Source: a bacterium
Lineage (GTDB): Bacteria; Patescibacteriota; Minisyncoccia; Phycocordibacterales; UBA5272
Assembly (NCBI GenBank): GCA_043718735.1
Contig: JAYSVC010000011.1
Coordinates: forward strand, 1 to 58,514
Reading direction: 5' to 3'
DNA: 58,514 nucleotides
This document shows, piece by piece, positions 1,787-58,514 of the stretch. A model generated the notes under the pieces. That model ran no database searches and was not told where the DNA came from. It was given only the letters and a program-made list of their open reading frames with translations. The translations under genes were made by a program, and so were the position numbers. The first letter of the stretch is position 1. Every line of letters begins with the position of its first letter.

Positions 1787-2341
1787 ATGTATACATTTAA
1801 TAGTTTTGATGAAGAGATAAAAAATGCAATGGAGAGACTGGCGACAGAAATGAAAAGTATACAAACAGGACGTGCGACACCAATGGTGTTAGACAATGTT
1901 TACATCGATGCTTATGGATCTAAGATGCAAATAAGTCATGTGGCTAGTATAGGGTTAGAAGATGCTAAGACACTACTAGTTACTCCATATGATAAAAGTG
2001 TTATGAAGGATTTGGAGCAGGGTATCAACGATGCTAATCTTGGCTTGTCTGTGGCCGCAGGTAGTGAGGGGTTACGTGTGATATTCCCAATGTTAACTAC
2101 TGAGCGTAGAACACAATATGTAAAAATAGTAAAAGATCAATTAGAAGACGCTAGAATAAAAATCAGAGGTGTGCGTGAAGATGCAAAAAAAGAAATAGAA
2201 AATAAAGCAAAAGAGGGTGCATACGGAGAAGATGATAAAAAAAGATTCCTAGACACATTACAAGCAAAAGTAGATAAAGCAAACAGTGATGCGGAACTTG
2301 CTTTTAAAAGCAAAGAGTCAGAAATAATGGGAGACAATTAA
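1787..2341 (+). CDS. frr: Ribosome recycling factor
   Basis: 184 aa, RRF-like throughout (GRATPMVLDNV..., LRVIFPMLTTERRTQYVKIVK); typical size. Confidence 0.9.
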   Translation: MYTFNSFDEEIKNAMERLATEMKSIQTGRATPMVLDNVYIDAYGSKMQISHVASIGLEDAKTLLVTPYDKSVMKDLEQGINDANLGLSVAAGSEGLRVIFPMLTTERRTQYVKIVKDQLEDARIKIRGVREDAKKEIENKAKEGAYGEDDKKRFLDTLQAKVDKANSDAELAFKSKESEIMGDN

Positions 2342-2362
2342 TTTTTATATTTTTAAAACATT

Positions 2363-3463
2363 ATGCTTACAACTTTATTTTTATTCCTAGCAGTTTTAGT
2401 TACTCTTGTCATGATACATGAGTTCGGACATTACGCTGCAGCTAAGATATGTGGCATGCGTGTCGAGGAGTTTGCTTTTGGTTTTCCTCCAAGATTATTT
2501 TCTAAGAAAATAGGTGAGACAGAATACAGTATAAACATGTTACCTATTGGTGGATATGTAAAGATAACCGGTGAGAGTTTTGACGAGCAAGAGAGGGAGA
2601 AAAATAAAAATGATATAAAAGCTTTTCAGAATAAAAATAGATTAGCCCAAGTATTTGTATTGTCAGCTGGAATAATTATGAATTTAATTTTAGCTTTTGC
2701 TATCTTTGCCTTTACTAATACGGGAGAAGAATATATAAAGGCTGATGATATTAATTACTCGTCATACATTAAAAATCCTAAGATAATAGTGAGTAGTGTA
2801 TCACCGAATTCACCGAGTAAGACAGCAGGAATAACTTCTGGCGATGAGGTGTTGGAGTTCAGGGCTGGTGGAGACATTGCTGATTTGAAAAGTGTAGTTA
2901 GTGTTATTGATTTAGTTAAAAGAAATAATGAGTCCGACATCAAAATAGTTTTTAAAAAAGAAAATGGTGAGGTGGTAACTAGTACAGTCAGGGCGGTATT
3001 TGGAGTAACTCCTGACAGAAAAAGTATAGGTATGGGTGTTATATATGCAGAAAAAGTAAAATTATCTTTTTTGGATAGTGTTAAAAAAGGTTTTTTTGAT
3101 ACAAAATATTATACAGTGGAAACTGTTAAAAGTTATTATGATTTATTTGCAAAACTTTTTACTGGAAATAATGTCTTGTCTTCTCTTAGTGGTCCAGTGG
3201 GTATAGCAAAAGCAGTTGGTAACGCTAGTCAGAATAACTTAGATGATTTTTTGTCTTTTGTAGCTTTGCTTTCAATTAACCTTGCTGTCTTTAATGCATT
3301 GCCATTGCCAGCGCTTGATGGGGGTAGGATATTATTCGTGTTATACGAGTCGATAAGTAGAAGAAAAATAAATATGAATTTTCAGTACTATACTAATCTG
3401 CTAGGTTTTATATTTTTAATTGGACTTATGCTTACTGTTACTTTTTTTGATATATTTAAATAA
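2363..3463 (+). CDS. rseP: RseP-type M50 site-2 zinc metalloprotease
   Basis: HEFGHY zinc motif in the first TM helix, a central PDZ-like segment, and the C-terminal NALPLPALDGG motif. Confidence 0.85.
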   Translation: MLTTLFLFLAVLVTLVMIHEFGHYAAAKICGMRVEEFAFGFPPRLFSKKIGETEYSINMLPIGGYVKITGESFDEQEREKNKNDIKAFQNKNRLAQVFVLSAGIIMNLILAFAIFAFTNTGEEYIKADDINYSSYIKNPKIIVSSVSPNSPSKTAGITSGDEVLEFRAGGDIADLKSVVSVIDLVKRNNESDIKIVFKKENGEVVTSTVRAVFGVTPDRKSIGMGVIYAEKVKLSFLDSVKKGFFDTKYYTVETVKSYYDLFAKLFTGNNVLSSLSGPVGIAKAVGNASQNNLDDFLSFVALLSINLAVFNALPLPALDGGRILFVLYESISRRKINMNFQYYTNLLGFIFLIGLMLTVTFFDIFK

Positions 3464-3564
3464 TTTAAAATAAAATTAGAATATAAAACAAAAATAAAGT
3501 GTAATTCTAATATTATAAAATCTGTGTATAATTCACTTTATAATTTGCTTATATTTAATATTTT

Positions 3565-3573
3565 TGCTATAAT
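3565..3573 (+). promoter_or_regulatory. Extended -10 box TGCTATAAT
   Basis: TGnTATAAT about 85 nt upstream of the ATG at 3658. Confidence 0.45.
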
Positions 3574-3657
3574 CTATGCACATTAGATTAAAAGATTTAT
3601 TTTTTATTCTGATGTTGTATCGCTCTTTTAATGGTTATAATTTTAAGGAGAAGTCTA

Positions 3658-4014
3658 ATGAAAAAATCTCTCGTCTTTGCTGGCATGATGCTAGCAGCAC
3701 TCGCATTATCTGCGTCAGCCGCAGAAATGCCCGGCCCCGAGCCTAACAAGCAAACATTGTTTGCTTTCACCAATACTAACAATGGCCATGCTGTGTTAGT
3801 CGCACTCGCCCCAAATGAAACTGCAGGGAATATGCAGTCATCTGGATTTATGATCGTCACCGGTCTTGCTTTGGATAAAAAGCCTCGCTACATTGATCTT
3901 TCTGATCTCAAGCCTATCTTTGGGTCTCTTGCACCAAAACGCTTGGGTAGCGCTACATTTGCGAGCTTGACGAATCCGCGTGAGCTACATCCGGAAGGTT
4001 ACTTGAAAATGTAA
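3658..4014 (+). CDS. Small secreted protein of unknown function (GC-rich, SD-bearing)
   Basis: Trimmed from ORF 3631..4014 to the Met preceded by AAGGAG. Signal-peptide-like N-terminus MKKSLVFAGMMLAALALSASAAE. Visibly higher G+C than its neighbours. Confidence 0.6.
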   Translation: MKKSLVFAGMMLAALALSASAAEMPGPEPNKQTLFAFTNTNNGHAVLVALAPNETAGNMQSSGFMIVTGLALDKKPRYIDLSDLKPIFGSLAPKRLGSATFASLTNPRELHPEGYLKM

Positions 4015-4176
4015 TCCTGCTGGTCAATCATGTTAACCTTAACCCCTTTGATAAAAATATTAATTTATTTTTGTTAAGGGGGTTTTATTTTGTTTAATTT
4101 TTCTTAAAAATATGTTATATTGTGTTTATAATAATTAATATCTACCTATCGTGCACAAGTAGTAAAGATAAAAAAT

Positions 4177-5097
4177 ATGCAAAAAGAGGTTTCAAATAAA
4201 AGATTCAAGGTTTTACTTTTTTATAAATACGTTACTATTAGTAATGCAAAAGAAATGATGGAATTACATCGTGCCGTGTGTGAAGTGCTCGACCTAAAAG
4301 GTAGGATTATAGTAGCCGAAGAGGGAATTAATGGCACAGTAGAGGGAAGCGTAGAAAACACAGAAAAGTATATTACTTTTATCAGAAAAGATAAAAGATT
4401 TAAAAACATGGATATAAAAGAAAGTGAAGGTAATGGGAATGCTTTTCCAAAATTATCCGTGCGTGTTAGAAATGAAATAGTGGGAACCAGATTCCCTGCT
4501 CACATAGACCCAAGGAAGGGCACAGCACGTCACATACTCGCTGATGATTTGAATAAAATGTATAAGAATAATGAAGACTTTGTAGTTGTTGATATGCGTA
4601 ATGATTATGAGTTGGCTAGTGGGCAATTCAAAAATACTTTAGATATTGGTCTTAAAAATAGTCGTGAACTAACGAGTGATGAGGTTATGAATAAGCTTAG
4701 AATACATAAAGATAAAAAAATAGTCACAGTATGTACAGGAGGAGTAAGATGTGAAAAGATGGCAGCCTACTTAGTAGATCAGGGCTTTACAAATGTGAAT
4801 CAATTATACAATGGAATACATTCATATATGGAAAAGTTCCCTGGAGATGATTGGCTCGGCACACTTTACACTTTTGATCAACGTGTAACTATGCATTTTG
4901 GTGGCGACAGAGAAATTATAGGTGAGTGTTTAGATTGTAAAAATAAGACAGAAGATTATTATGATATATACGAAGATTATAAAGATAAAAATGGTAATGA
5001 TAGAAAAAAAGACACTCATGTATTACTTTGTGAGTCATGTGCAGTTGCTCGTGGTGCCACAAAGCATGCTAGTAGAAAAGAAAGTGTGTTAGTATAG
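4177..5097 (+). CDS. trhO: Rhodanese-domain tRNA uridine(34) hydroxylase (UPF0176/TrhO family)
   Basis: N-terminal UPF0176 block (LLFYKYV...GRIIVAEEGINGTVEG) and rhodanese active-site loop CTGGVRCEK. Cys-rich C-terminal tail. Confidence 0.8.
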   Translation: MQKEVSNKRFKVLLFYKYVTISNAKEMMELHRAVCEVLDLKGRIIVAEEGINGTVEGSVENTEKYITFIRKDKRFKNMDIKESEGNGNAFPKLSVRVRNEIVGTRFPAHIDPRKGTARHILADDLNKMYKNNEDFVVVDMRNDYELASGQFKNTLDIGLKNSRELTSDEVMNKLRIHKDKKIVTVCTGGVRCEKMAAYLVDQGFTNVNQLYNGIHSYMEKFPGDDWLGTLYTFDQRVTMHFGGDREIIGECLDCKNKTEDYYDIYEDYKDKNGNDRKKDTHVLLCESCAVARGATKHASRKESVLV

Positions 5098-5162
5098 TTT
5101 TGTGTTTTAAAGTCTTGCTTTTTATCTTTATAAAATAGTATAATGTAAATACAAATAAAATC

Positions 5163-5453
5163 ATGTCAACAAATAACATAAAAACCACTGTGCAAAAAAA
5201 TCTAAAAGAAATATTAGTTCACGATGTTGAGGCTGCAGCTTTTCTAATTGTTTCTGTGTCATTAATTGCTAGTCTTACTTCTTTTGCTATGGATCAAAGT
5301 AAAATTGAGAAGAATCCTTCTGAAAAGGTAATTATAAAACAAATATACAATCCTCAATCAGTAGAGATAATAGATTTGGATAATGATGGTTATAATGACA
5401 TGATTATAACTCATCAAGATGGACATATTGAGCATTCATATAGTAGGAATTAG
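5163..5453 (+). CDS. Membrane-anchored hypothetical protein
   Basis: One TM helix (AAFLIVSVSLIASLTSFA) and a DLDNDGYNDMII Ca-binding/FG-GAP-like motif. Confidence 0.5.
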   Translation: MSTNNIKTTVQKNLKEILVHDVEAAAFLIVSVSLIASLTSFAMDQSKIEKNPSEKVIIKQIYNPQSVEIIDLDNDGYNDMIITHQDGHIEHSYSRN

Positions 5454-5499
5454 TTTTACTAAAATTATTTTAATTGCAAAATAATTATTTTAAAATAAA

Positions 5500-5536
5500 A
5501 AATCCCCGAGCGTAAGCGAGGGGATTTATTTTTTTG
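5500..5536. terminator. Bidirectional intrinsic terminator
   Basis: Hairpin AAATCCCC...GGGGATTT with a GUAA loop, flanked by A-run and T-run, between convergent genes. Confidence 0.65.
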
Positions 5537-5555
5537 TATTTAATATATAGAGGTG

Positions 5556-6212
5556 CTATCTTCCTGAAGTAACTAATTGAACAGCTTCTTCTCTTGCCTG
5601 CTCACAAGCAGGGAATAGGTGGGAGAAGAATGGGTGGACTTTTTCTTTTCCTAAAATCATACAGGCTTCGCGATATGCTTCTTCTTGACTGTCGCTGATA
5701 TGACATACATTCCTTATCGCTCTTGGTCCAGAGTTACCTGTCCAGGCTTTTTCAAATGAATCATTCGAGTAACGATATCGTATGGTTTCCATGGTTGCCA
5801 TGCTCGGGTCAGTGGGGCCTAAAAGTTCTCTAGCTAAATCAAAACAATCTTTGTTAGACACATAAGTGAAAATCATCGCAGACATAATCCCACTGGTCAT
5901 ATAACTGGATAAGGCAGGCATAATTGTGTCGCCATAAAGCAATGCATCCCAAGAATTTACATCTTCTATTTTTACTTTTAGGCGTGCAGCACAGATTTTT
6001 GATCCATACTTCTTCAGCCATTCAGTATTTTTTGGGTAGTGTTTCAGTACCTCTTCTGGTGTCATGTATACATCGTCTTGCAAATTACAAGTTCTCGCAC
6101 CATCCATCTCATCAATCATAAGAGATTTGATAAAGTTTTTATTTGGGTATCCATCTGGCTTTACCAGTACAAAAAGAGTTTGGATTTTTGGTTGTTTGTC
6201 TCGATCTGTCAT
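5556..6212 (-). CDS. Divergent nucleoside-diphosphate-kinase-like protein with insertions
   Basis: NDK blocks LFVLVKPDG, YMTSGIMSAMIF, LLGPTDPSMATMETIRYRY and NVCHISDS (equivalent to N..HGSDS, catalytic His). 218 aa against the usual 140-150. GGAG SD upstream and higher G+C. Confidence 0.6.
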   Translation of the reverse strand: MTDRDKQPKIQTLFVLVKPDGYPNKNFIKSLMIDEMDGARTCNLQDDVYMTPEEVLKHYPKNTEWLKKYGSKICAARLKVKIEDVNSWDALLYGDTIMPALSSYMTSGIMSAMIFTYVSNKDCFDLARELLGPTDPSMATMETIRYRYSNDSFEKAWTGNSGPRAIRNVCHISDSQEEAYREACMILGKEKVHPFFSHLFPACEQAREEAVQLVTSGR

Positions 6213-36994: not shown

Positions 36995-38599
36995 ATGATG
37001 TTAAAAAATATAAAAATAAATAATTATAGAAGTATTAAAGAAATAGATTTTGAGATTGAACAAATATCAGACATGAGTTTTACTTATGGGTTATTGGGTA
37101 TAAATGAGGCTGGAAAATCTAGTATTTTAGAGGCTTTATCATTCAAAGATTCTAGAATAAATACTCTACCAAAGATAAATGATTTTTACAAAGGAAATAA
37201 AGAAGATTTTCAGGTTTTATATAAATATGAAATATCCGATTTTGAAATTGAGGAAATTAAAAAATTATCAGTATTTGAAAGTTTAACAAAGGATTCTTTC
37301 GAAGGTGTCGACACTCTATCAGAAGAAGAGTTCGACACATCATTTTTTTTAGACAAAAACTTAAAACCCTCGGAATTAAAAAAAATAGATCTGATATACA
37401 CATATAAAAGAGATCAGAATGTTACGAGACAGGCATCCATATCCTTTTCAGAAGTTAAAGATCAGAAATTTAAAATATTTTTAGAGGCTAACCTTTTACA
37501 AGAAATAGAAAAAATATCTCACAAAACTACTTTTTGGAAGTATGACCCAAAGTACTTAATTGATAATAATATTCCTTTGAATATATTCACACAGAAGATT
37601 GATGATTTTATACCATTAAGAAACTGTTTCAATTTGATAGGCTTACCTACTCACGAAAAAATAAAAGAAGCTATAGATAAGATATTGCCAGGTGAAAATT
37701 CTAGCGAAAGAGAAAAACTGCAGGATGATATGGGAACAAAGATAACGGAACATATTAAAAATGTTTGGAAAGGTCATGATATAACAATTACTTTTAATAT
37801 ATCAGGTGATATTCTTAATTTTCACATAAAGGAAAATAACTCAAATGAATTGGCCGAGAAGATAGATCAGAGGAGCGACGGATTTAAACAGTTTATTTCT
37901 TTTATATTAAGTGTTTCAATTGAAAATACAACTCAAAATCTAAGTAACACCATAATATTACTTGATGAGCCAGAAACTCATTTACACCCAAAAGCTCAAC
38001 AGTTATTTCTAGAAGAACTTATTCTTTTAACAAAAGAAAATAACAATATTTGTTTTTTTGCTACACACTCAAATTATATGGTGGATAAAAGTAATATTGA
38101 CAGAAATTTTTTAATTACAAAAGATTACACAGACAGAACTAACAAAAAAACTACAAAAGGAAGGTTTGATAAAAAGAATGCTAGTTATGCATATGTAAAT
38201 TTTAAAGCTTTTCAGATTTACTCAACAGATTATCATAATGAACTTTATGCAGATTTAGAAATAAATTTTCCAGATATTTTTAAAAAAAAAATAAATTTTA
38301 CACACGTATTAGGTATAGAAAAAGAAAATGTGCATAAAAATGAAGAAGAACAAAAAAAATGTAGTGATTGCAAAAAATACATTAAAACAAATAAAGACAA
38401 AACAACGTATACAGAATACATATCTGAACAAAAATATATAAGAAATCAGATACATCACCCAGAAAATAAAAATGGAAATGAAAGATATACACAGGAGAGA
38501 TTAGAAAAATCTATTAATTTTATGTTGAAATTAATTTCAGATGAGAAACAGAAAGAAGTTGCGATGGTAAGTAAAACAATAAAAAGTAAAGCTTTATGA
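36995..38599 (+). CDS. ABC/SMC-like (AAA_15/21-type) ATPase with an unassigned C-terminal domain carrying an RNxxxH motif
   Basis: Walker A GINEAGKSS (37097-37123), signature-like QRSDGFKQF, Walker B ILLDEPETHLHP, and H-loop FFATHS. The C-terminal part of about 170 aa contains CSDCKKY and YIRNQIHHPEN (38441-38458). Confidence 0.75.
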   Translation: MMLKNIKINNYRSIKEIDFEIEQISDMSFTYGLLGINEAGKSSILEALSFKDSRINTLPKINDFYKGNKEDFQVLYKYEISDFEIEEIKKLSVFESLTKDSFEGVDTLSEEEFDTSFFLDKNLKPSELKKIDLIYTYKRDQNVTRQASISFSEVKDQKFKIFLEANLLQEIEKISHKTTFWKYDPKYLIDNNIPLNIFTQKIDDFIPLRNCFNLIGLPTHEKIKEAIDKILPGENSSEREKLQDDMGTKITEHIKNVWKGHDITITFNISGDILNFHIKENNSNELAEKIDQRSDGFKQFISFILSVSIENTTQNLSNTIILLDEPETHLHPKAQQLFLEELILLTKENNNICFFATHSNYMVDKSNIDRNFLITKDYTDRTNKKTTKGRFDKKNASYAYVNFKAFQIYSTDYHNELYADLEINFPDIFKKKINFTHVLGIEKENVHKNEEEQKKCSDCKKYIKTNKDKTTYTEYISEQKYIRNQIHHPENKNGNERYTQERLEKSINFMLKLISDEKQKEVAMVSKTIKSKAL

Positions 38600-47895: not shown

Positions 47896-49710
47896 TTACA
47901 ACACCTTAATCAACTTCAAAATATCATAAGTCACATCTTTATAATCCTCTTTCCATTTTTCATGTACAGGTTTTAATTTATCAGCTCCCTTCATATCCTT
48001 TTTGATCTCATCGATTATTTTCTTAGTGATTTTATTTTTCTTTATAAATGTATCTATGTATTCACCAGCAACTTCTAAGACTTTCTCTTTTTCTTCTGAT
48101 TTTAAGTTCTTATCTTCTACTAGGTCACACAGGTGAGTGATTATGGTCTGCATGGTTAATTCCCTCTCTGTAGCTATTTGTTTTAATTCTTTATCTTCTA
48201 ATATCAACTTTAAGGTGATGTGACTGGTTGGAACTTTTGCTTCCAGATTTTTTATGCTAGCTTCTTTTATCTTTAATTCATCGTCTGTCATTGATTTTTC
48301 AAGTCCCCCCATTTTAACCCTTACTAATTTTTGCTTCTCTTCTAAGTCAGCTTTGCTATATTTATGTAGCGCATCCACTGCATTGCTGGACTTTTGTATT
48401 AATCTTTTATTTTCTTCTACTACAAATGGGGCGACCATCAGTGCCTGATTATTGAGTCCAATAACTTTGAGTCCTGACAATGAGCGCACACGTGACAGGG
48501 CAACGTAACCCATACCAAATCCAAATCCTTTACTCAGGTCCACCTCAGCAGCGTCGAGGGTCATGCCTTGAGACTTATGTATTGTTATCGCCCAGGCGAG
48601 ACGTAGTGGGATTTGAGTCACTTCAGCGAGTATTTTATCATCGTCACTTTTTATCTGCCACACATCGGGAACTACATTTATTTTCTCTTTATCTTTTGCA
48701 TCATTACCAAGTGTCTCGACTATTGGCATGTTATCCTTGTCAAAACCAATCACAACACCTAGCGTTCCATTTTGGTATTTGCCACTTTTGTCATTCTTGA
48801 TAAACATTACTTTTGTATCTGTTTTTAATTTTAATACTTCACTAGTTAATATATTAGCTTTTAGATTATCTACGAGTTGCTTTTTTCCGACACTGGTCAT
48901 GATGTATTCGCACTCTTCAACTTTACTTTTATGCCTTTCTTCTAGGTTGTCATGTAATGTCTTGTATTTCTCTAGATTTATGATATCTACATTTTCATTA
49001 TGGGTAAAAAGTTTTATAGCGTCATCTAAAACATTTTCTGTAGTGTTCTGCAATGCTTCTAATGAGTCATATATATCCTCATCAGCATTACGGATGGCAT
49101 TTAGGATACTGGTTAGGGTATTATCTTCTTGTCTGTAATTCTGAGTTAGATAACATATTACTGGTTTTGCATTTAGCCAGGCTGGACTGTTGAATGCGTA
49201 TTCATTTATAATGTTGACTGACCTATCACGCACTACTGGTGGTAATTGGAAAAAGTCACCACAGAAAATAACTTGTAATCCTCCAAAAGGTTTATTTGCA
49301 TTCTTATTATCTTGTAGAGCTCTCATGTGTTTTGATATTCTATCTAACATGTCTAACTTGCTGGCGTGCAACATTGAGACTTCGTCTATTATGAGGACTT
49401 GAGTATTTAGGTATCTCTTCACCAGCTTCTCATTATCGCTCATATTATCCAGATCCCAGTCGCCTATTCTATCTTTTACTCCGATACCAGACCAAGCGTG
49501 CAGGGTGGTGCCTCCTATGTGCGTAGCTGCGATACCAGTGCTGGCTGTCACTGCATGAGGTATGTTGTGATGTTTTAGATAATCTATGAACATATTCAAA
49601 ACATATGTCTTTCCAGTACCCGCTGAACCTGTCAAAAAGGTTGTATGACCTAGTTTTAAAATGTTTATCGCTTCTTCTTGAGACATGTAATTGTGTTTTT
49701 TCTTGTACAT
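47896..49710 (-). CDS. PIF1/RecD-family (SF1B) helicase with a C-terminal HTH domain
   Basis: Walker A GSAGTGKT, Walker B VLIIDEVSML, the late motif TIHKSQGMT, and a C-terminal helical repeat with QIATERELTMQTIITHL. The promoter position makes the second Met (49686) the likelier start. Confidence 0.85.
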   Translation of the reverse strand: MYKKKHNYMSQEEAINILKLGHTTFLTGSAGTGKTYVLNMFIDYLKHHNIPHAVTASTGIAATHIGGTTLHAWSGIGVKDRIGDWDLDNMSDNEKLVKRYLNTQVLIIDEVSMLHASKLDMLDRISKHMRALQDNKNANKPFGGLQVIFCGDFFQLPPVVRDRSVNIINEYAFNSPAWLNAKPVICYLTQNYRQEDNTLTSILNAIRNADEDIYDSLEALQNTTENVLDDAIKLFTHNENVDIINLEKYKTLHDNLEERHKSKVEECEYIMTSVGKKQLVDNLKANILTSEVLKLKTDTKVMFIKNDKSGKYQNGTLGVVIGFDKDNMPIVETLGNDAKDKEKINVVPDVWQIKSDDDKILAEVTQIPLRLAWAITIHKSQGMTLDAAEVDLSKGFGFGMGYVALSRVRSLSGLKVIGLNNQALMVAPFVVEENKRLIQKSSNAVDALHKYSKADLEEKQKLVRVKMGGLEKSMTDDELKIKEASIKNLEAKVPTSHITLKLILEDKELKQIATERELTMQTIITHLCDLVEDKNLKSEEKEKVLEVAGEYIDTFIKKNKITKKIIDEIKKDMKGADKLKPVHEKWKEDYKDVTYDILKLIKVL

Positions 49711-54838: not shown

Positions 54839-56062
54839 ATGACAATATTATTAGGATTATTTGCATTCTTTATACCGGCAACTATAGTAGTTGCTGTGGT
54901 TTACTTTCTTATTCGTACAATGCGTGGTGCTATTGTGGGTGATGGGTTAAATGTAAAAGAACTCACTATTGATGGTGGTATTTTTATCACTCTTATTAGT
55001 AGTATAGTTGCTTTGGTATCTATTATCTTTTCAGCTATAGATAAAAAGTTTGTAGATGTATTAAAACAAAATTACTACGCATATCAAGACACTGTGAATG
55101 ATGATGTGCGTGTTGCTGTATCTATTATTTTAATAGCTTATCCAATGTACTTATTATTAGCTTATTACAGGGCAAATTATCTAAAAAATAATCCGAGTAG
55201 AAGAAATATACCTGCAATGAAGTATGTAAATTATGTGATACTTGCTGTAGCCTCACTATTTATTTTGGGGTCACTAGCTACAACTATTTATGAATATCTT
55301 GGTGGTGAACTAGGTGTTGCTTTTGCTTACAAACTTTTGACTGTAATTGCGATTGCTTCTCTTTTAATAGTTTACAATTACTTTACTTTAAAAAGAAATT
55401 ATGACGCAAAATCAAATGCTCCTAATATCTTAGCAGTTATAAGCCTAATAGCTGTTATCTCAGCTGTGGCATATAGTATAAATATATTAGGTTCACCTGC
55501 TCAGGTTAGAAAAACAAAATTTGATGAAAAAAGATTAAGTGACTTATCAAATATACAAAATGAAATCTTAAATTCTTGGACAAGGAATAAAGTGTTGCCT
55601 GCTGACTTAAAATCAATACAAGGAGATGGATTCAATAATGGATTCATAATACCAGTAGACCCCAGAACAAAATTAAGTTACGAATACAAAATAGTTGAAA
55701 TGGGTAAGATGACCAAAAGAATAGGTCAAGACTGTGCTACATATTATCCTAATAAGTTCAATGCTTTTAACAACAATAATGTTTATGATGTTACAAAGCT
55801 GTCTTGTGAGATACCCGGAAAATCAACATTTGAAATATGTGCTAACTTTGAGACTATACGTGCTTATGATGCGAATGGTGTAGAGCAGGTTGGTTGGGAT
55901 TCTTCTAATCCTCTTGGTGTTAAAAGTCTAGACATGGCATCTTCTCGTTATTCTGAAGTTACATACTATGATTCGTATACTAAGAATTCTAACTGGAATC
56001 ATAATGTAGGTAATACATGTTTTAAAAGAACTATTGATCCGTTGAAATACCCTCAGTATTAA
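54839..56062 (+). CDS. Multi-pass membrane protein with a Cys-containing extracytoplasmic C-terminal domain (DUF5671-like)
   Basis: About 6 TM helices followed by a soluble domain with paired Cys residues and a pseudopilin-like LPADL...PVDPRTKLSYEYK segment. Confidence 0.5.
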   Translation: MTILLGLFAFFIPATIVVAVVYFLIRTMRGAIVGDGLNVKELTIDGGIFITLISSIVALVSIIFSAIDKKFVDVLKQNYYAYQDTVNDDVRVAVSIILIAYPMYLLLAYYRANYLKNNPSRRNIPAMKYVNYVILAVASLFILGSLATTIYEYLGGELGVAFAYKLLTVIAIASLLIVYNYFTLKRNYDAKSNAPNILAVISLIAVISAVAYSINILGSPAQVRKTKFDEKRLSDLSNIQNEILNSWTRNKVLPADLKSIQGDGFNNGFIIPVDPRTKLSYEYKIVEMGKMTKRIGQDCATYYPNKFNAFNNNNVYDVTKLSCEIPGKSTFEICANFETIRAYDANGVEQVGWDSSNPLGVKSLDMASSRYSEVTYYDSYTKNSNWNHNVGNTCFKRTIDPLKYPQY

Positions 56063-56071
56063 AATAAAAAT

Positions 56072-56108
56072 AAAATGATGGTGCCGAAGGCACCATCATT
56101 TTATTTTG
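56072..56108 (+). terminator. Intrinsic terminator
   Basis: AAAATGATGGTGCC-GAA-GGCACCATCATTTT followed by a T-run. Confidence 0.75.
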
Positions 56109-56124
56109 TAATAATGAATATTTT

Positions 56125-56133
56125 TGTTATACT
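56125..56133 (+). promoter_or_regulatory. Extended -10-like box TGTTATACT (leuS)
   Basis: TGnTATACT about 20 nt upstream of the ATG at 56153. Confidence 0.45.
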
Positions 56134-56152: not shown

Positions 56153-58514
56153 ATGAATACAGAAGAAAATACTTTTCCAGAAAATAACAAAGACGAACAA
56201 AGTACAAAACCTAAAAAGTATGTACTGGATATGTTCCCATATCCTAGCGGTGAAGGGCTACATGTTGGTCACCCAAAAGGCTACATAGCAACTGACATAT
56301 ACAGTAGAATGTATAAAATGAAAGGTTATGAAGTGGTGCACCCTATGGGCTGGGATGCTTTTGGACTACCTGCGGAACAGTTTGCATTAAAGAACAAAAC
56401 TCACCCAAAAGCACAGACAGAAAAAAACGTAGCTAATTTTAAATCACAATTAAATAAAATAAATCTTGATTATGATTGGGATAGAGAGATATCAACTACT
56501 GACCCGAAGTTCTACAAGTGGACACAGTGGATATTTAAGCAACTATATAAAAAAGGCCTCGCTTATGAAAGCTTTGAACCGATCAATTGGTGTCCAAGCT
56601 GTAAGACTGGTCTCGCTAACGAAGACTTAGAAGGTAATGCTTGTGAACGCTGTGGGACAATAGTAGAAAAAAAACCACTAAGACAATGGAATCTCCGTAT
56701 TACCGATTATGCAGACAGGTTAATACAAGATCTAGACACTCTCGCTTGGCCGGAGTGGGTAAAAACTGCACAAAAGAATTGGATAGGTCGTAGTGAAGGA
56801 AGTGAAATTGATTTTAAAATAGTCGGAGAAAAAGAAATAAGTTTTTCTGAAGAAAATAATACTGGACTAGTTGGATATGGTACAAATGTAAATATGAATG
56901 TAAAATATTCTTATGAAAATAAGTTCACAGTATTTACAACTCGTGCTGATACGCTTTTTGGTTGCACATATACAGTATTGGCACCAGAACATAAATTAGT
57001 TTTGGAATTATTAGAAGATAGAGACAATCAAAATATTTTACAAAATAAAGAAGAGGTGAAAAAGTATTTAGAAGAAGTAAAGTTAAAAACTGACATAGAG
57101 CGTGGCGCTGAAGGGAAAGAAAAGACAGGAGTTAAGCTAGAGGGTGTTATGGCTATTAACCCAGCTAATCAAAAAGAGGTTCCAGTTTACATCGCAGACT
57201 ACGTCCTCGCTTCATACGGCACTGGTGCAATTATGGCAGTACCAGCTCACGATGAGCGTGATTTTGAATTCGCAAAAAAATATAATATAGAAATACTTGA
57301 TGTAGTCGCTAAATACTTTGAACTTTCTGGAAACGATCAAGAAAGAAAGTGTGTAGAAATTATAAATAGAATAGTAGTAGATCCTATAATAAGAGATAAA
57401 GATAATAATTTTTATCTTATAAAAGAACCTCAAGATAGTGCTATACATTTTGCTGGTGGTGGATTAGATGAAGGTGAGACAGATACAGAAGCAATGAGAA
57501 GAGAGATAAGAGAAGAGTTGGGCTTTACAGATTTTGAAATAGTTAGAAAAATAAATCCACCGCTATCTGTAAGAGGGTATAGGCACACTAAAAATAAAAA
57601 TCAAAGAACTATTGGAACTACCTATGAAGTAGTTTTAAATAGTTTAGAAAGAGTTAGTTCTGAGATAGAAGAAGGTAAACATGAGCTAGTTGTTGTCAAA
57701 AAAGAAGACGTCTTAAAAACTATCACTTGGGAGCATCATAAATTTTTATTTGAAAGATATTTGATTGATGAAAAAGTTTTTTCTGAAAAAGGAATGGTTA
57801 TAAACTCAGATATTTTTAATGGTCTTATGAGCGAAGAAGCAAAGATAAAAATCACAGAATATGTCGGAGGCAAAATAGTGACCAAATATAAACTTCGTGA
57901 TTGGGTATTTGCTCGTCAACGTTATTGGGGTGAGCCATTTCCGGTTGTGTATCCGACAAAAATAAATCCAGACACTGGTGAAGTAGAGAGAGATAATAGC
58001 ATATCGCCGATTATGGTCGCAGATTCAGAGCTTCCAGTCTTATTACCCGAAGTAGAGAGTTATGAGCCAACAGGTACCGGTGAATCGCCACTCGCTATTA
58101 TCGATAGCTTTGTAAATGTGTGTGGCTACTTAAATGAAGAAGGAGAATTTGAAAGTGTAAAAAATTATTTTAGATTTGAAAATAAATTCATACAAGATAT
58201 CTTAAGCTCTACTAAAAATAATACAGTAAGATTAGATAACAAAAATATAAAAACAAACGATATATTAGAGATAAAGGACAAAGATAACAAAAGTTATGGG
58301 TTTATTAAAATAAAAAATATTACAAAGAGAAAATTATTAGAACTAGAAATAAATAATTTAAACGGAACCTCATATCAAAGTAAAGAAGAACAGGTAGAAA
58401 GTTATAAAAAATATTATGGAGAAGATATAAACTTGGAAACTATTTTTTATATTTTTGATTTTGAATTATTTAATAAAAATATAAAACTATTCAAAAGAGA
58501 AACAAACACCATGC
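56153..58514 (+). CDS. leuS: Leucyl-tRNA synthetase (3'-truncated by the window end) with two inserted domains
   Basis: The frame has no stop from 56153 to the window end, so it is absent from the track. It contains [12 protein letters not shown] (HIGH), CPSC...[55 protein letters not shown], and KRETNTM at the window edge. Confidence 0.92.
57296..57775 (+). other. Nudix hydrolase domain inserted in leuS
   Basis: Nudix box [23 protein letters not shown] at 57458-57526 fits GX5EX7REUXEEXGU exactly. Confidence 0.8.
58166..58472 (+). other. ASCH/PUA-like domain inserted in leuS
   Basis: [22 protein letters not shown]...NDILEIKD...[15 protein letters not shown]...[29 protein letters not shown] parallels the YqfB-type ASCH pattern as I recall it. 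Confidence 0.55.

Follow-up and report, generated by a model that had tools for sequence, protein, structure and literature searches.

Structures of bacterial leucyl-tRNA synthetase (LeuRS) are available from Thermus thermophilus (Tth; PDB codes 1H3N and 2BYT) and Escherichia coli (PDB code 4AQ7), and the Nudix hydrolases that cleave diadenosine tetraphosphate (Ap4A), such as human NUDT2 (PDB code 3U53), the Aquifex enzyme (PDB code 3I7U), and Chlamydia CT771, are stand-alone proteins. To our knowledge, few bacterial synthetases contain catalytic inserts, and in the LeuRS editing domain no such insert is known. The NCBIfam model 'ileS_w_GNAT' likewise describes a bacterial class I synthetase with an extra catalytic domain, although its host, domain, and position differ from those described here. 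The leuS gene of this study lies at the end of a stretch of 58,514 nucleotides (nt) of contig JAYSVC010000011.1 (positions 1–58,514; GenBank assembly GCA_043718735.1; Patescibacteriota, Minisyncoccia, Phycocordibacterales, UBA5272), which was analyzed as a whole and is called the window. The encoded LeuRS shared with the Tth and E. coli structures the domain order and the HIGH, TTRxDT, GTG...AHDxRD, and RQRYWG motifs. When compared with Tth LeuRS, it contained in addition a 152-residue Nudix domain between Tth residues 364 and 374, inside the connective peptide 1 (CP1) editing domain, a 27-residue stub ahead of CP1, and an ASCH domain of ~104 residues ahead of the RETNTM block. The Nudix insert had the common Nudix fold of the Ap4A hydrolases and, unlike them, was part of a synthetase.

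The Nudix insert comprised residues 388–539 (nt 57314–57769, + strand), with an extra strand at the N terminus and a helix at the C terminus, as delimited with Pfam, AlphaFold2 (AF2), and Foldseek. The alignment with Tth LeuRS broke at query residue 387 (Tth 364) and was picked up at query residue 540 (Tth 374), where Tth LeuRS has ~9 residues. The insert-free close relatives P0006, P0013, and P0018 had 2–14 residues at this site. An initial annotation of the contig had described a continuous leuS frame in which about 150 extra residues replaced a short linker, and both statements were borne out. The frame ran from the ATG at nt 56153 to nt 58513 through 787 codons, with zero stops or frameshifts, and was cut by the end of the window. 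The span first given, nt 57296–57775 (residues 382–541), did contain the insert and was refined to the borders above, whereas its placement at the CP1/editing-domain boundary did not hold. The PF13603 profile of the CP1 editing domain was interrupted by the insert at position 142 of 185, and the insert is therefore located inside CP1, where it began 17 residues past the editing residue Asp370.

The Pfam NUDIX profile PF00293, which has a gathering score of 21.1, matched residues 407–530 with 40.1 bits (E 4e-10) when the whole protein was scanned and with 44 bits (E 2.8e-11) when only the segment was used. Residues 436–458 (nt 57458–57526, + strand), with the catalytic residues Arg450, Glu451, Glu454, and Glu455, matched the Nudix box GX5EX7REUXEEXGU exactly and were the sole Nudix-box match in a six-frame translation of the whole window. 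The AF2 model calculated on the insert alignment had a predicted local distance difference test score (pLDDT) of 95.2 and a predicted template modelling score (pTM) of 0.87. When the Foldseek search was carried out with this model, Nudix structures were found at a probability of 1.0. There were 529 PDB matches at E ≤ 0.001, and the best 50 of these were all Nudix proteins. The first was 2AZW (TM 0.74/0.82), followed by the Aquifex Ap4A hydrolase 3I7U (E 3.6e-9), and the next matches were NudI, Mycobacterium smegmatis MutT1/Rv2985 (a diadenosine polyphosphatase), and RppH–Ap4A. The exact box and the whole fold that had initially been read from the letters were thus supported by both profile and structure searches. 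The AF2 model of CP1 together with the Nudix domain (residues 215–600) had a pTM of 0.81 and a pLDDT above 90 in both linkers, values that are compatible with docking of the Nudix domain rather than loose tethering. The insert is a complete Nudix domain whose catalytic box is canonical, and it is located within a surface loop of CP1.

The occurrence of the insert was examined in the 120 best LeuRS homologues from NCBI, ENA, JGI, and Logan assemblies. A segment of 155–180 residues, corresponding to ~150 residues of insert, spanned the site in 99 of these 120 sequences, and the alignment of relatives suggested with the initial annotation placed the domain at the same site in these carriers. The carriers included P0001 and P0002, which are 82–83% identical to the window protein, and contigs of up to 612 kb. 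The junction sequences and the Nudix boxes were conserved among the relatives. Most of the closest LeuRS relatives found in public Patescibacteria assemblies carry the Nudix insert. Carriers with a named source belonged to Paceibacterota/Paceibacteria, to Adlerbacteria, and to metagenome-assembled genomes labelled Saccharibacteria; this taxonomic spread is a lower bound, taken from 23 loci that were found with two exact peptide patterns of a closer set of inserts (A2). The source annotations of the carriers read merely 'leucine--tRNA ligase', and their Pfam domains were precomputed in the public data. One record entitled 'Methanosarcinales archaeon' (L020, nt 2945–5959) encoded a bacterial-type LeuRS with a Nudix domain at the same site and 40% insert identity; this record probably reflects a mistake in binning or labelling and not a true presence in archaea.

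In an alignment of 63 diverse inserts (A1), with identities down to 21–45%, residues Gly436, Glu451, Glu454, and Gly457 were invariant, and residues Glu442, Arg450, Glu455, Lys480, Asn483, and His529 were kept in at least 90% of the homologues. The catalytic glutamates, initially noted as retained in one sequence, were therefore conserved together with the arginine across the whole alignment. Two further segments were delimited by conservation. The first was a subfamily-specific loop at the 'X-loop' position, 17–26 residues past the box (residues 475–484; nt 57575–57604, + strand), and the second was the subfamily motif ITWEHH within the helix at the C-terminal end of the insert (residues 524–529; nt 57722–57739, + strand), whose Trp526, His528, and His529 were invariant in A2. 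When the insert was compared with its closest DNA relative (L001), the nonsynonymous and synonymous divergences were dN 0.134 and dS 1.25, giving a dN/dS of ~0.11, with synonymous sites near saturation. The LeuRS host segments had dN/dS values of 0.06–0.16 in the same comparison, and among closer relatives the insert identity tracked the CP1 identity. Purifying selection clearly acts on the Nudix insert, as it does on the other parts of the LeuRS.

A mobile origin was also considered. The reading as an intein or homing endonuclease was rejected, with no Hint or homing-endonuclease Pfam family found on the window LeuRS and DUF559 present only in some relatives. The repeat search around the insert gave only AT-rich chance repeats, none of which brackets nt 57314 or nt 57769, and a recent mobile-element insertion was rejected because no target-site duplication flanks the insert. 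The G+C content at third codon positions (GC3) was ~0.15 in both the Nudix insert (nt 57314–57769) and the ASCH insert (nt 58166–58477), as against 0.26–0.30 in the LeuRS host segments and 0.247 ± 0.037 (minimum 0.18) in 25 other genes of the window. Because the Nudix insert is old in the clade, a signal of foreign origin would not be expected behind this low GC3.

The host enzyme retained the features of a bacterial-type LeuRS. The 5' part of leuS (nt 56153–58514, + strand) was identified by its open frame, by the TIGR00396 leuS_bact profile (567.7 bits against a cutoff of 548.4, despite the protein ending at residue 787), and by PDB matches, the top ones of which were the T. thermophilus and E. 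coli LeuRS. The HIGH signature was present as HVGH (residues 37–40; nt 56261–56272, + strand), and its His37, Gly39, and His40 were invariant across 121 aligned LeuRS. The PF13603 profile matched with 190.9 bits. The first part of the editing domain (nt 56879–57313, + strand; profile positions 9–142) contained the editing motifs TTRADT (nt 56936–56953) and GTG...AHDxRD (nt 57218–57262). Residues Thr262, Thr263, Arg264, Asp266, and Thr267 of the former and Gly356, Gly358, His366, Asp367, Arg369, and Asp370 of the latter were invariant in 121 of 121 sequences. After the insert, the rest of CP1 with a conserved block (nt 57791–57826) and then the catalytic core (nt 57770–58165 in all, + strand) aligned with Tth LeuRS residues 374–479, and the RQRYWG motif of the core (nt 57914–57931, + strand) was invariant in the same alignment. 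The KMSKS region lies past the window end; in P0001, a relative with 83% identity, the signature reads KMSKSKGN. With these editing and synthetic motifs intact, the LeuRS host is not degraded.

Two further positions in the LeuRS carried extra sequence. The second in-frame insert, an ASCH domain (residues ~672–775; nt 58166–58477, + strand), preceded the RETNTM block at what is called site 3, in the region that holds the second zinc-binding segment in T. thermophilus LeuRS. The Pfam profile PF04266, with a gathering score of 21.2, matched it at 26.3 bits in the whole protein and at 31.3 bits in the segment. E. coli YqfB (PDB code 1TE7), a member of the N4-acetylcytidine amidohydrolase family, matched weakly over its full length (E 0.09). 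The ASCH domain was absent from site 3 of the 82–83% identical P0001 and P0002, and was present there, with ~50% identity, in P0048, P0050, and P0062, whose LeuRS are 48–49% identical overall, so its distribution across the LeuRS relatives appears patchy. The third position, site 0, at the junction of the catalytic core and CP1, held a stub of 27 extra residues (residues 229–255; nt 56837–56917, + strand), seen as a gap in the alignment with Tth LeuRS. In relatives, site 0 was occupied by Ham1/ITPase (P0035), HAD (P0027), α/β-hydrolase (P0055), or DUF559 together with Nudix (P0040), and by one to two extra Nudix copies in P0121, P0122, and P0124. An α/β-hydrolase was also found among the hot-spot domains of P0088 and a methyltransferase in P0004. 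At the CP1 site itself (site 1), P0005, whose LeuRS is 68% identical, had a 126-residue insert (residues ~376–500) with neither a Nudix box nor a Pfam match, which suggests that the CP1 site is a replaceable hot spot. Every scanned relative bearing Ham1, HAD, α/β-hydrolase, methyltransferase, or DUF559 also contained the site-1 Nudix domain.

The relatives of the insert were not confined to site 1. When 1.84 billion representatives were searched with the profile, 65 clusters were found at E ≤ 1e-30 and 1092 at E ≤ 1e-10. Among 268 collected proteins, subfamily domains were located at site 1 (n = 200), site 0 (n = 20), and site 3 (n = 17), and some LeuRS held two or three Nudix copies. When the domains were clustered, the site-3 copies grouped together, whereas the site-0 copies grouped partly together and partly with site-1 subclades, which indicates several insertion or transposition events. 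A second Nudix domain at site 3 (residues ~650–808) was observed in P0007, P0008, P0014, P0020, and P0053 (~1123 residues). Its box was deviant, for example GGIEEGVTQDETARQEVKEETG, with the first glutamate lost and RE changed to RQE, and catalysis by these copies may be altered or abolished.

A second synthetase carried the same subfamily. Locus L033 (nt 2762–4693) encoded a 643-residue archaeal-type prolyl-tRNA synthetase (ProRS) with the Nudix domain between the anticodon-binding and ProRS-C_1 domains. This form was found in five clusters (P0275–P0279), and its Nudix-free relatives were named Nanoarchaeota/Woesearchaeota (DPANN). Stand-alone members of 160–180 residues shared the N-terminal extension and the loop motifs, and a word-indexed homologue search with one of them, P0175, gave 7 proteins. 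P0175 was encoded 3 nt ahead of a leuS lacking the insert, P0241 was encoded 2 nt ahead of a leuS with a Nudix domain of its own, P0164 was encoded 16 nt downstream of the proS end, and P0198 was encoded two genes from a proS for a 643-residue Nudix-bearing ProRS. This count of synthetase neighbours, four of nine stand-alone members, takes in two pairs with possibly common ancestry. On these grounds, the insert is assigned to a distinct, uncharacterised Nudix subfamily that is repeatedly coupled to two synthetases.

The gene order ychF–DUF5671–nudix–leuS was found in two of the stand-alone loci (compare L025, nt 2196–3936). In the window, a DUF5671 membrane protein gene (nt 54839–56062, + strand) was located directly upstream of leuS. 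The slot of the stand-alone nudix gene was occupied by a bidirectional terminator-like hairpin with T/A runs (nt 56067–56107), detected by a terminator scan with a 19-pair stem, and by a promoter-like site, TTGTAA-16-TATACT with an upstream TG (nt 56106–56133, + strand), found only by consensus scan ~20 nt before the leuS ATG; the Nudix domain was within leuS instead. The DUF5671–leuS loci thus show a Rosetta-stone-type pattern in conserved synteny.

Two side observations concern proteins of the subfamily with other architectures. Five proteins of 273–388 residues (P0180, P0181, P0183, P0184, and P0142) consisted of a degenerate CP1-like fragment and a Nudix domain, without a LeuRS body. The T-rich motif was lost in their CP1-like fragments, and they may be trans-acting relics or factors. 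In P0168 (1318 residues), an M17 leucyl-aminopeptidase family domain was combined with two GNAT domains and Nudix domains of the subfamily, a further link of the subfamily to amino-acid metabolism.

When the insert was compared with known Nudix families, the best match in both profile (E 5e-13, full length) and fold (E 9e-11) was 2AZW, a structural genomics entry from Enterococcus faecalis. The match covered the aromatic-rich loop past the box and the C-terminal helix containing histidine. However, 2AZW was only 21% identical, is free-standing with no assigned substrate, and was without the subfamily's K..N signature. The RppH, NudI, and MutT equivalogs had the Nudix box region in common with the insert and gave partial hidden Markov model (HMM) matches of 29–33 bits, three- to fourfold under their curated cutoffs of 95–118 bits. 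The insert was not a member of RppH (NF001936 and related; 33.1 bits against 118), MutT (TIGR00586; 29.1 against 97.9), or NudI (NF012016; 30 against 95). The proline of the ADP-ribose Nudix enzymes is said to be located at +16 from the box (Dunn 1999), and this signature was absent, the +16 residue of the insert being Arg474. The array SQPWPFPxS, described for NADH pyrophosphatases in PMC5389931, was not found anywhere in the insert.

The loop past the box offered a clue to the substrate. The X-loop ~17 residues past the box sets Nudix specificity, and a tyrosine there marks hydrolases of diadenosine polyphosphates (ApnA), according to the same review (PMC5389931, citing Dunn 1999 for the tyrosine). 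The insert had Tyr476 at +18, Lys480 at +22, and Lys482 at +24, and ungapped residue counting placed a tyrosine at +17 and lysines at +22 and +24 in human NUDT2 (sequence as in PDB code 3U53). An aromatic residue at +16 to +19 was present in 179 of the 179 site-1 domains with a recognisable box, and Kxx[NR] in 157 of them. The Tyr/Lys loop may therefore be taken as a weak lead toward an ApnA-type substrate.

Synthetases are the main cellular source of Ap4A and related dinucleoside tetraphosphates (Ap4N), and Nudix enzymes cleave these asymmetrically into ATP and AMP, as stated in PMC13627108. We infer that the Nudix domain is most likely a catalytically active, Mg2+-dependent pyrophosphohydrolase coupled to aminoacylation. 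Tentatively, we propose that it would operate beside the synthetase to clear Ap4A/Ap4N in cis, the reading that we favour although it is short of probable. Clearance of Ap4A, raised in the initial annotation, gains indirect support from the repeated ties of the subfamily to two synthetases and from the aromatic/Lys loop. During activation, the aminoacyl-adenylate would be attacked by ATP or another nucleoside triphosphate (NTP) to give Ap4A/Ap4N as a by-product, which the inserted domain would cleave asymmetrically into ATP and AMP at the place of production. The fusion would guarantee 1:1 co-expression and proximity; channelling between the active sites is not claimed. Local clearance of by-products would suit a minimal nucleotide metabolism with few stand-alone house-cleaning genes. 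The association of the domain with two different synthetases argues against a role specific to tRNA-Leu, and we infer a substrate that is common to aminoacylation. Hydrolysis of the aminoacyl-adenylates themselves is chemically unlikely, because Nudix chemistry requires a pyrophosphate linkage and these compounds have none.

The proposal can be extended to a 'synthetase-associated Nudix' subfamily, recruited independently into LeuRS of the Candidate Phyla Radiation (CPR), at three sites and in up to three copies, and into DPANN-type ProRS, as a second house-keeping active site that would destroy Ap4N or adenylate-derived by-products in cis. This broader reading is rather doubtful.

Several observations weigh against clearance of Ap4A/Ap4N. 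When the insert profile was aligned with NUDT2 by hhalign, the alignment extended only up to the Nudix box, with no significant alignment past it, and the equivalence of the Tyr/Lys loops is therefore not established. The Foldseek and HMM scores failed to separate Ap4A hydrolases from NTPases or RppH, even if 3I7U ranked second in Foldseek and NudI, MutT1, and RppH came next within one to two orders of magnitude. The insert scored far below the curated cutoffs of all the characterised equivalogs named above. In the work of Goerlich et al. 1982, LeuRS was reportedly not among the strongest Ap4A producers. Finally, the LeuRS hot spots were shared by unrelated enzymes (Ham1, HAD, α/β-hydrolase, methyltransferase, and ASCH), and five of the nine stand-alone members examined were not next to a synthetase gene.

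The last two observations fit a generic MutT/NudI-like enzyme that cleans the nucleotide pool. Here LeuRS would be merely a permissive, essential, and constitutive scaffold with no aminoacylation link, into which small hydrolase genes were absorbed during genome reduction. The contents of the hot spots, with DUF559 among them in relatives and ASCH in the window, favoured this explanation, as did the different, non-Nudix insert of P0005 at the identical site, the rank of NudI, MutT, and MutT1 among the best structural and HMM matches, and the stand-alone members away from synthetase genes. A mere scaffold accounts less well for the recurrence of one Nudix subfamily at three LeuRS sites, in ProRS, and beside leuS and proS. 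The Nudix domain was the constant partner, since all of the scanned LeuRS bearing Ham1, HAD, or hydrolase domains had it at site 1 as well. Moreover, no extra domain was found in the other large window proteins scanned, namely ClpB, GyrA, an AddA-like helicase, and two class II synthetases. We regard the scaffold explanation as the close rival of Ap4A/Ap4N clearance and as slightly less likely.

An RNA-directed activity is less probable still. In this case, the domain would be an RppH-like 5'-pyrophosphohydrolase or decapping enzyme for triphosphate-, NAD-, or Np4A-capped RNA, with the synthetase as a targeting platform. The best partial NCBIfam matches were RppH models, a weak Pfam match was Nudt16-like, and RppH structures and the decapping effector AvrM14 were among the PDB matches, although the RppH score of 33 bits was far below its cutoff. 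The ASCH family is usually considered RNA- or nucleoside-binding, and an ASCH domain on the same RNA-binding host raises the possibility of cooperation; nevertheless, neither the closest relatives nor most of the Nudix-bearing LeuRS had one. A further argument against it is that RNase P cleavage leaves a 5'-monophosphate on mature tRNAs.

A non-catalytic module, either a nucleotide sensor or a structural brace that modulates CP1 movement and thereby editing or aminoacylation, is quite improbable. The high scores of the CP1–Nudix model and its linkers are compatible with rigid docking, some of the extra site-3 copies had a deviant box, and Nudix-fold proteins without enzymatic activity exist (PMC5389931). 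At site 1, however, the REx2EE residues and both box glycines were invariant or nearly so at 21–45% identity, and the strict Nudix box was present in 163 of the 200 domains (a recognisable box in 179). From this pattern of conservation, catalysis is expected and not mere binding. An assembly chimera or a separate nested gene, for which the probable origin of the window from a metagenome assembly and the low GC3 of both inserts could be cited, was effectively excluded, because the identical architecture, with conserved junction sequences, was contained in ~100 LeuRS from independent sources, including the 82–83% identical proteins, and the frame had no stop, frameshift, or flanking repeat.

Two other genes of the window are unrelated to the Nudix domain. 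An AAA_15/AAA_21 (AbiEii-like) ATPase was encoded at nt 36995–38599 (+ strand), and a PIF1-type helicase with a C-terminal helix-turn-helix (HTH) domain at nt 47896–49710 (− strand). Both may be related to defence or to mobile elements.

The initial annotation had been aware of no described LeuRS–Nudix fusion, and the full-text literature in PMC and bioRxiv gave the same result, with no description of a LeuRS–Nudix or ProRS–Nudix fusion found. In the available text of the 2017 review of the Nudix clan, the words 'tRNA' and 'synthetase' do not occur, and NCBIfam release 20 returned no LeuRS–Nudix model for the window protein. The LeuRS–Nudix architecture seems to be a recurrent combination of known parts that has never been described.

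The finding ties one Nudix subfamily repeatedly to synthetases in minimal-genome organisms that are not culturable alone, and points to LeuRS in this lineage as a hot spot of domain insertion, namely of Nudix, ASCH, Ham1, HAD, α/β-hydrolase, and methyltransferase. If the activity were another one, such as RNA decapping or NTP sanitation, an unannotated enzyme would still be present in hundreds of 'leucine--tRNA ligase' entries. If Ap4A/Ap4N clearance is true, the turnover of alarmones and dinucleotides would be physically linked to their main source, which would help explain how by-products are handled in gene-poor CPR and DPANN cells. If the broader reading of a subfamily that destroys such by-products in cis is true, LeuRS in these organisms would be an enzyme of three activities, synthesis, editing, and dinucleotide clearance, and the fusion would represent a convergent solution in both of the great lineages of ultra-small symbionts.

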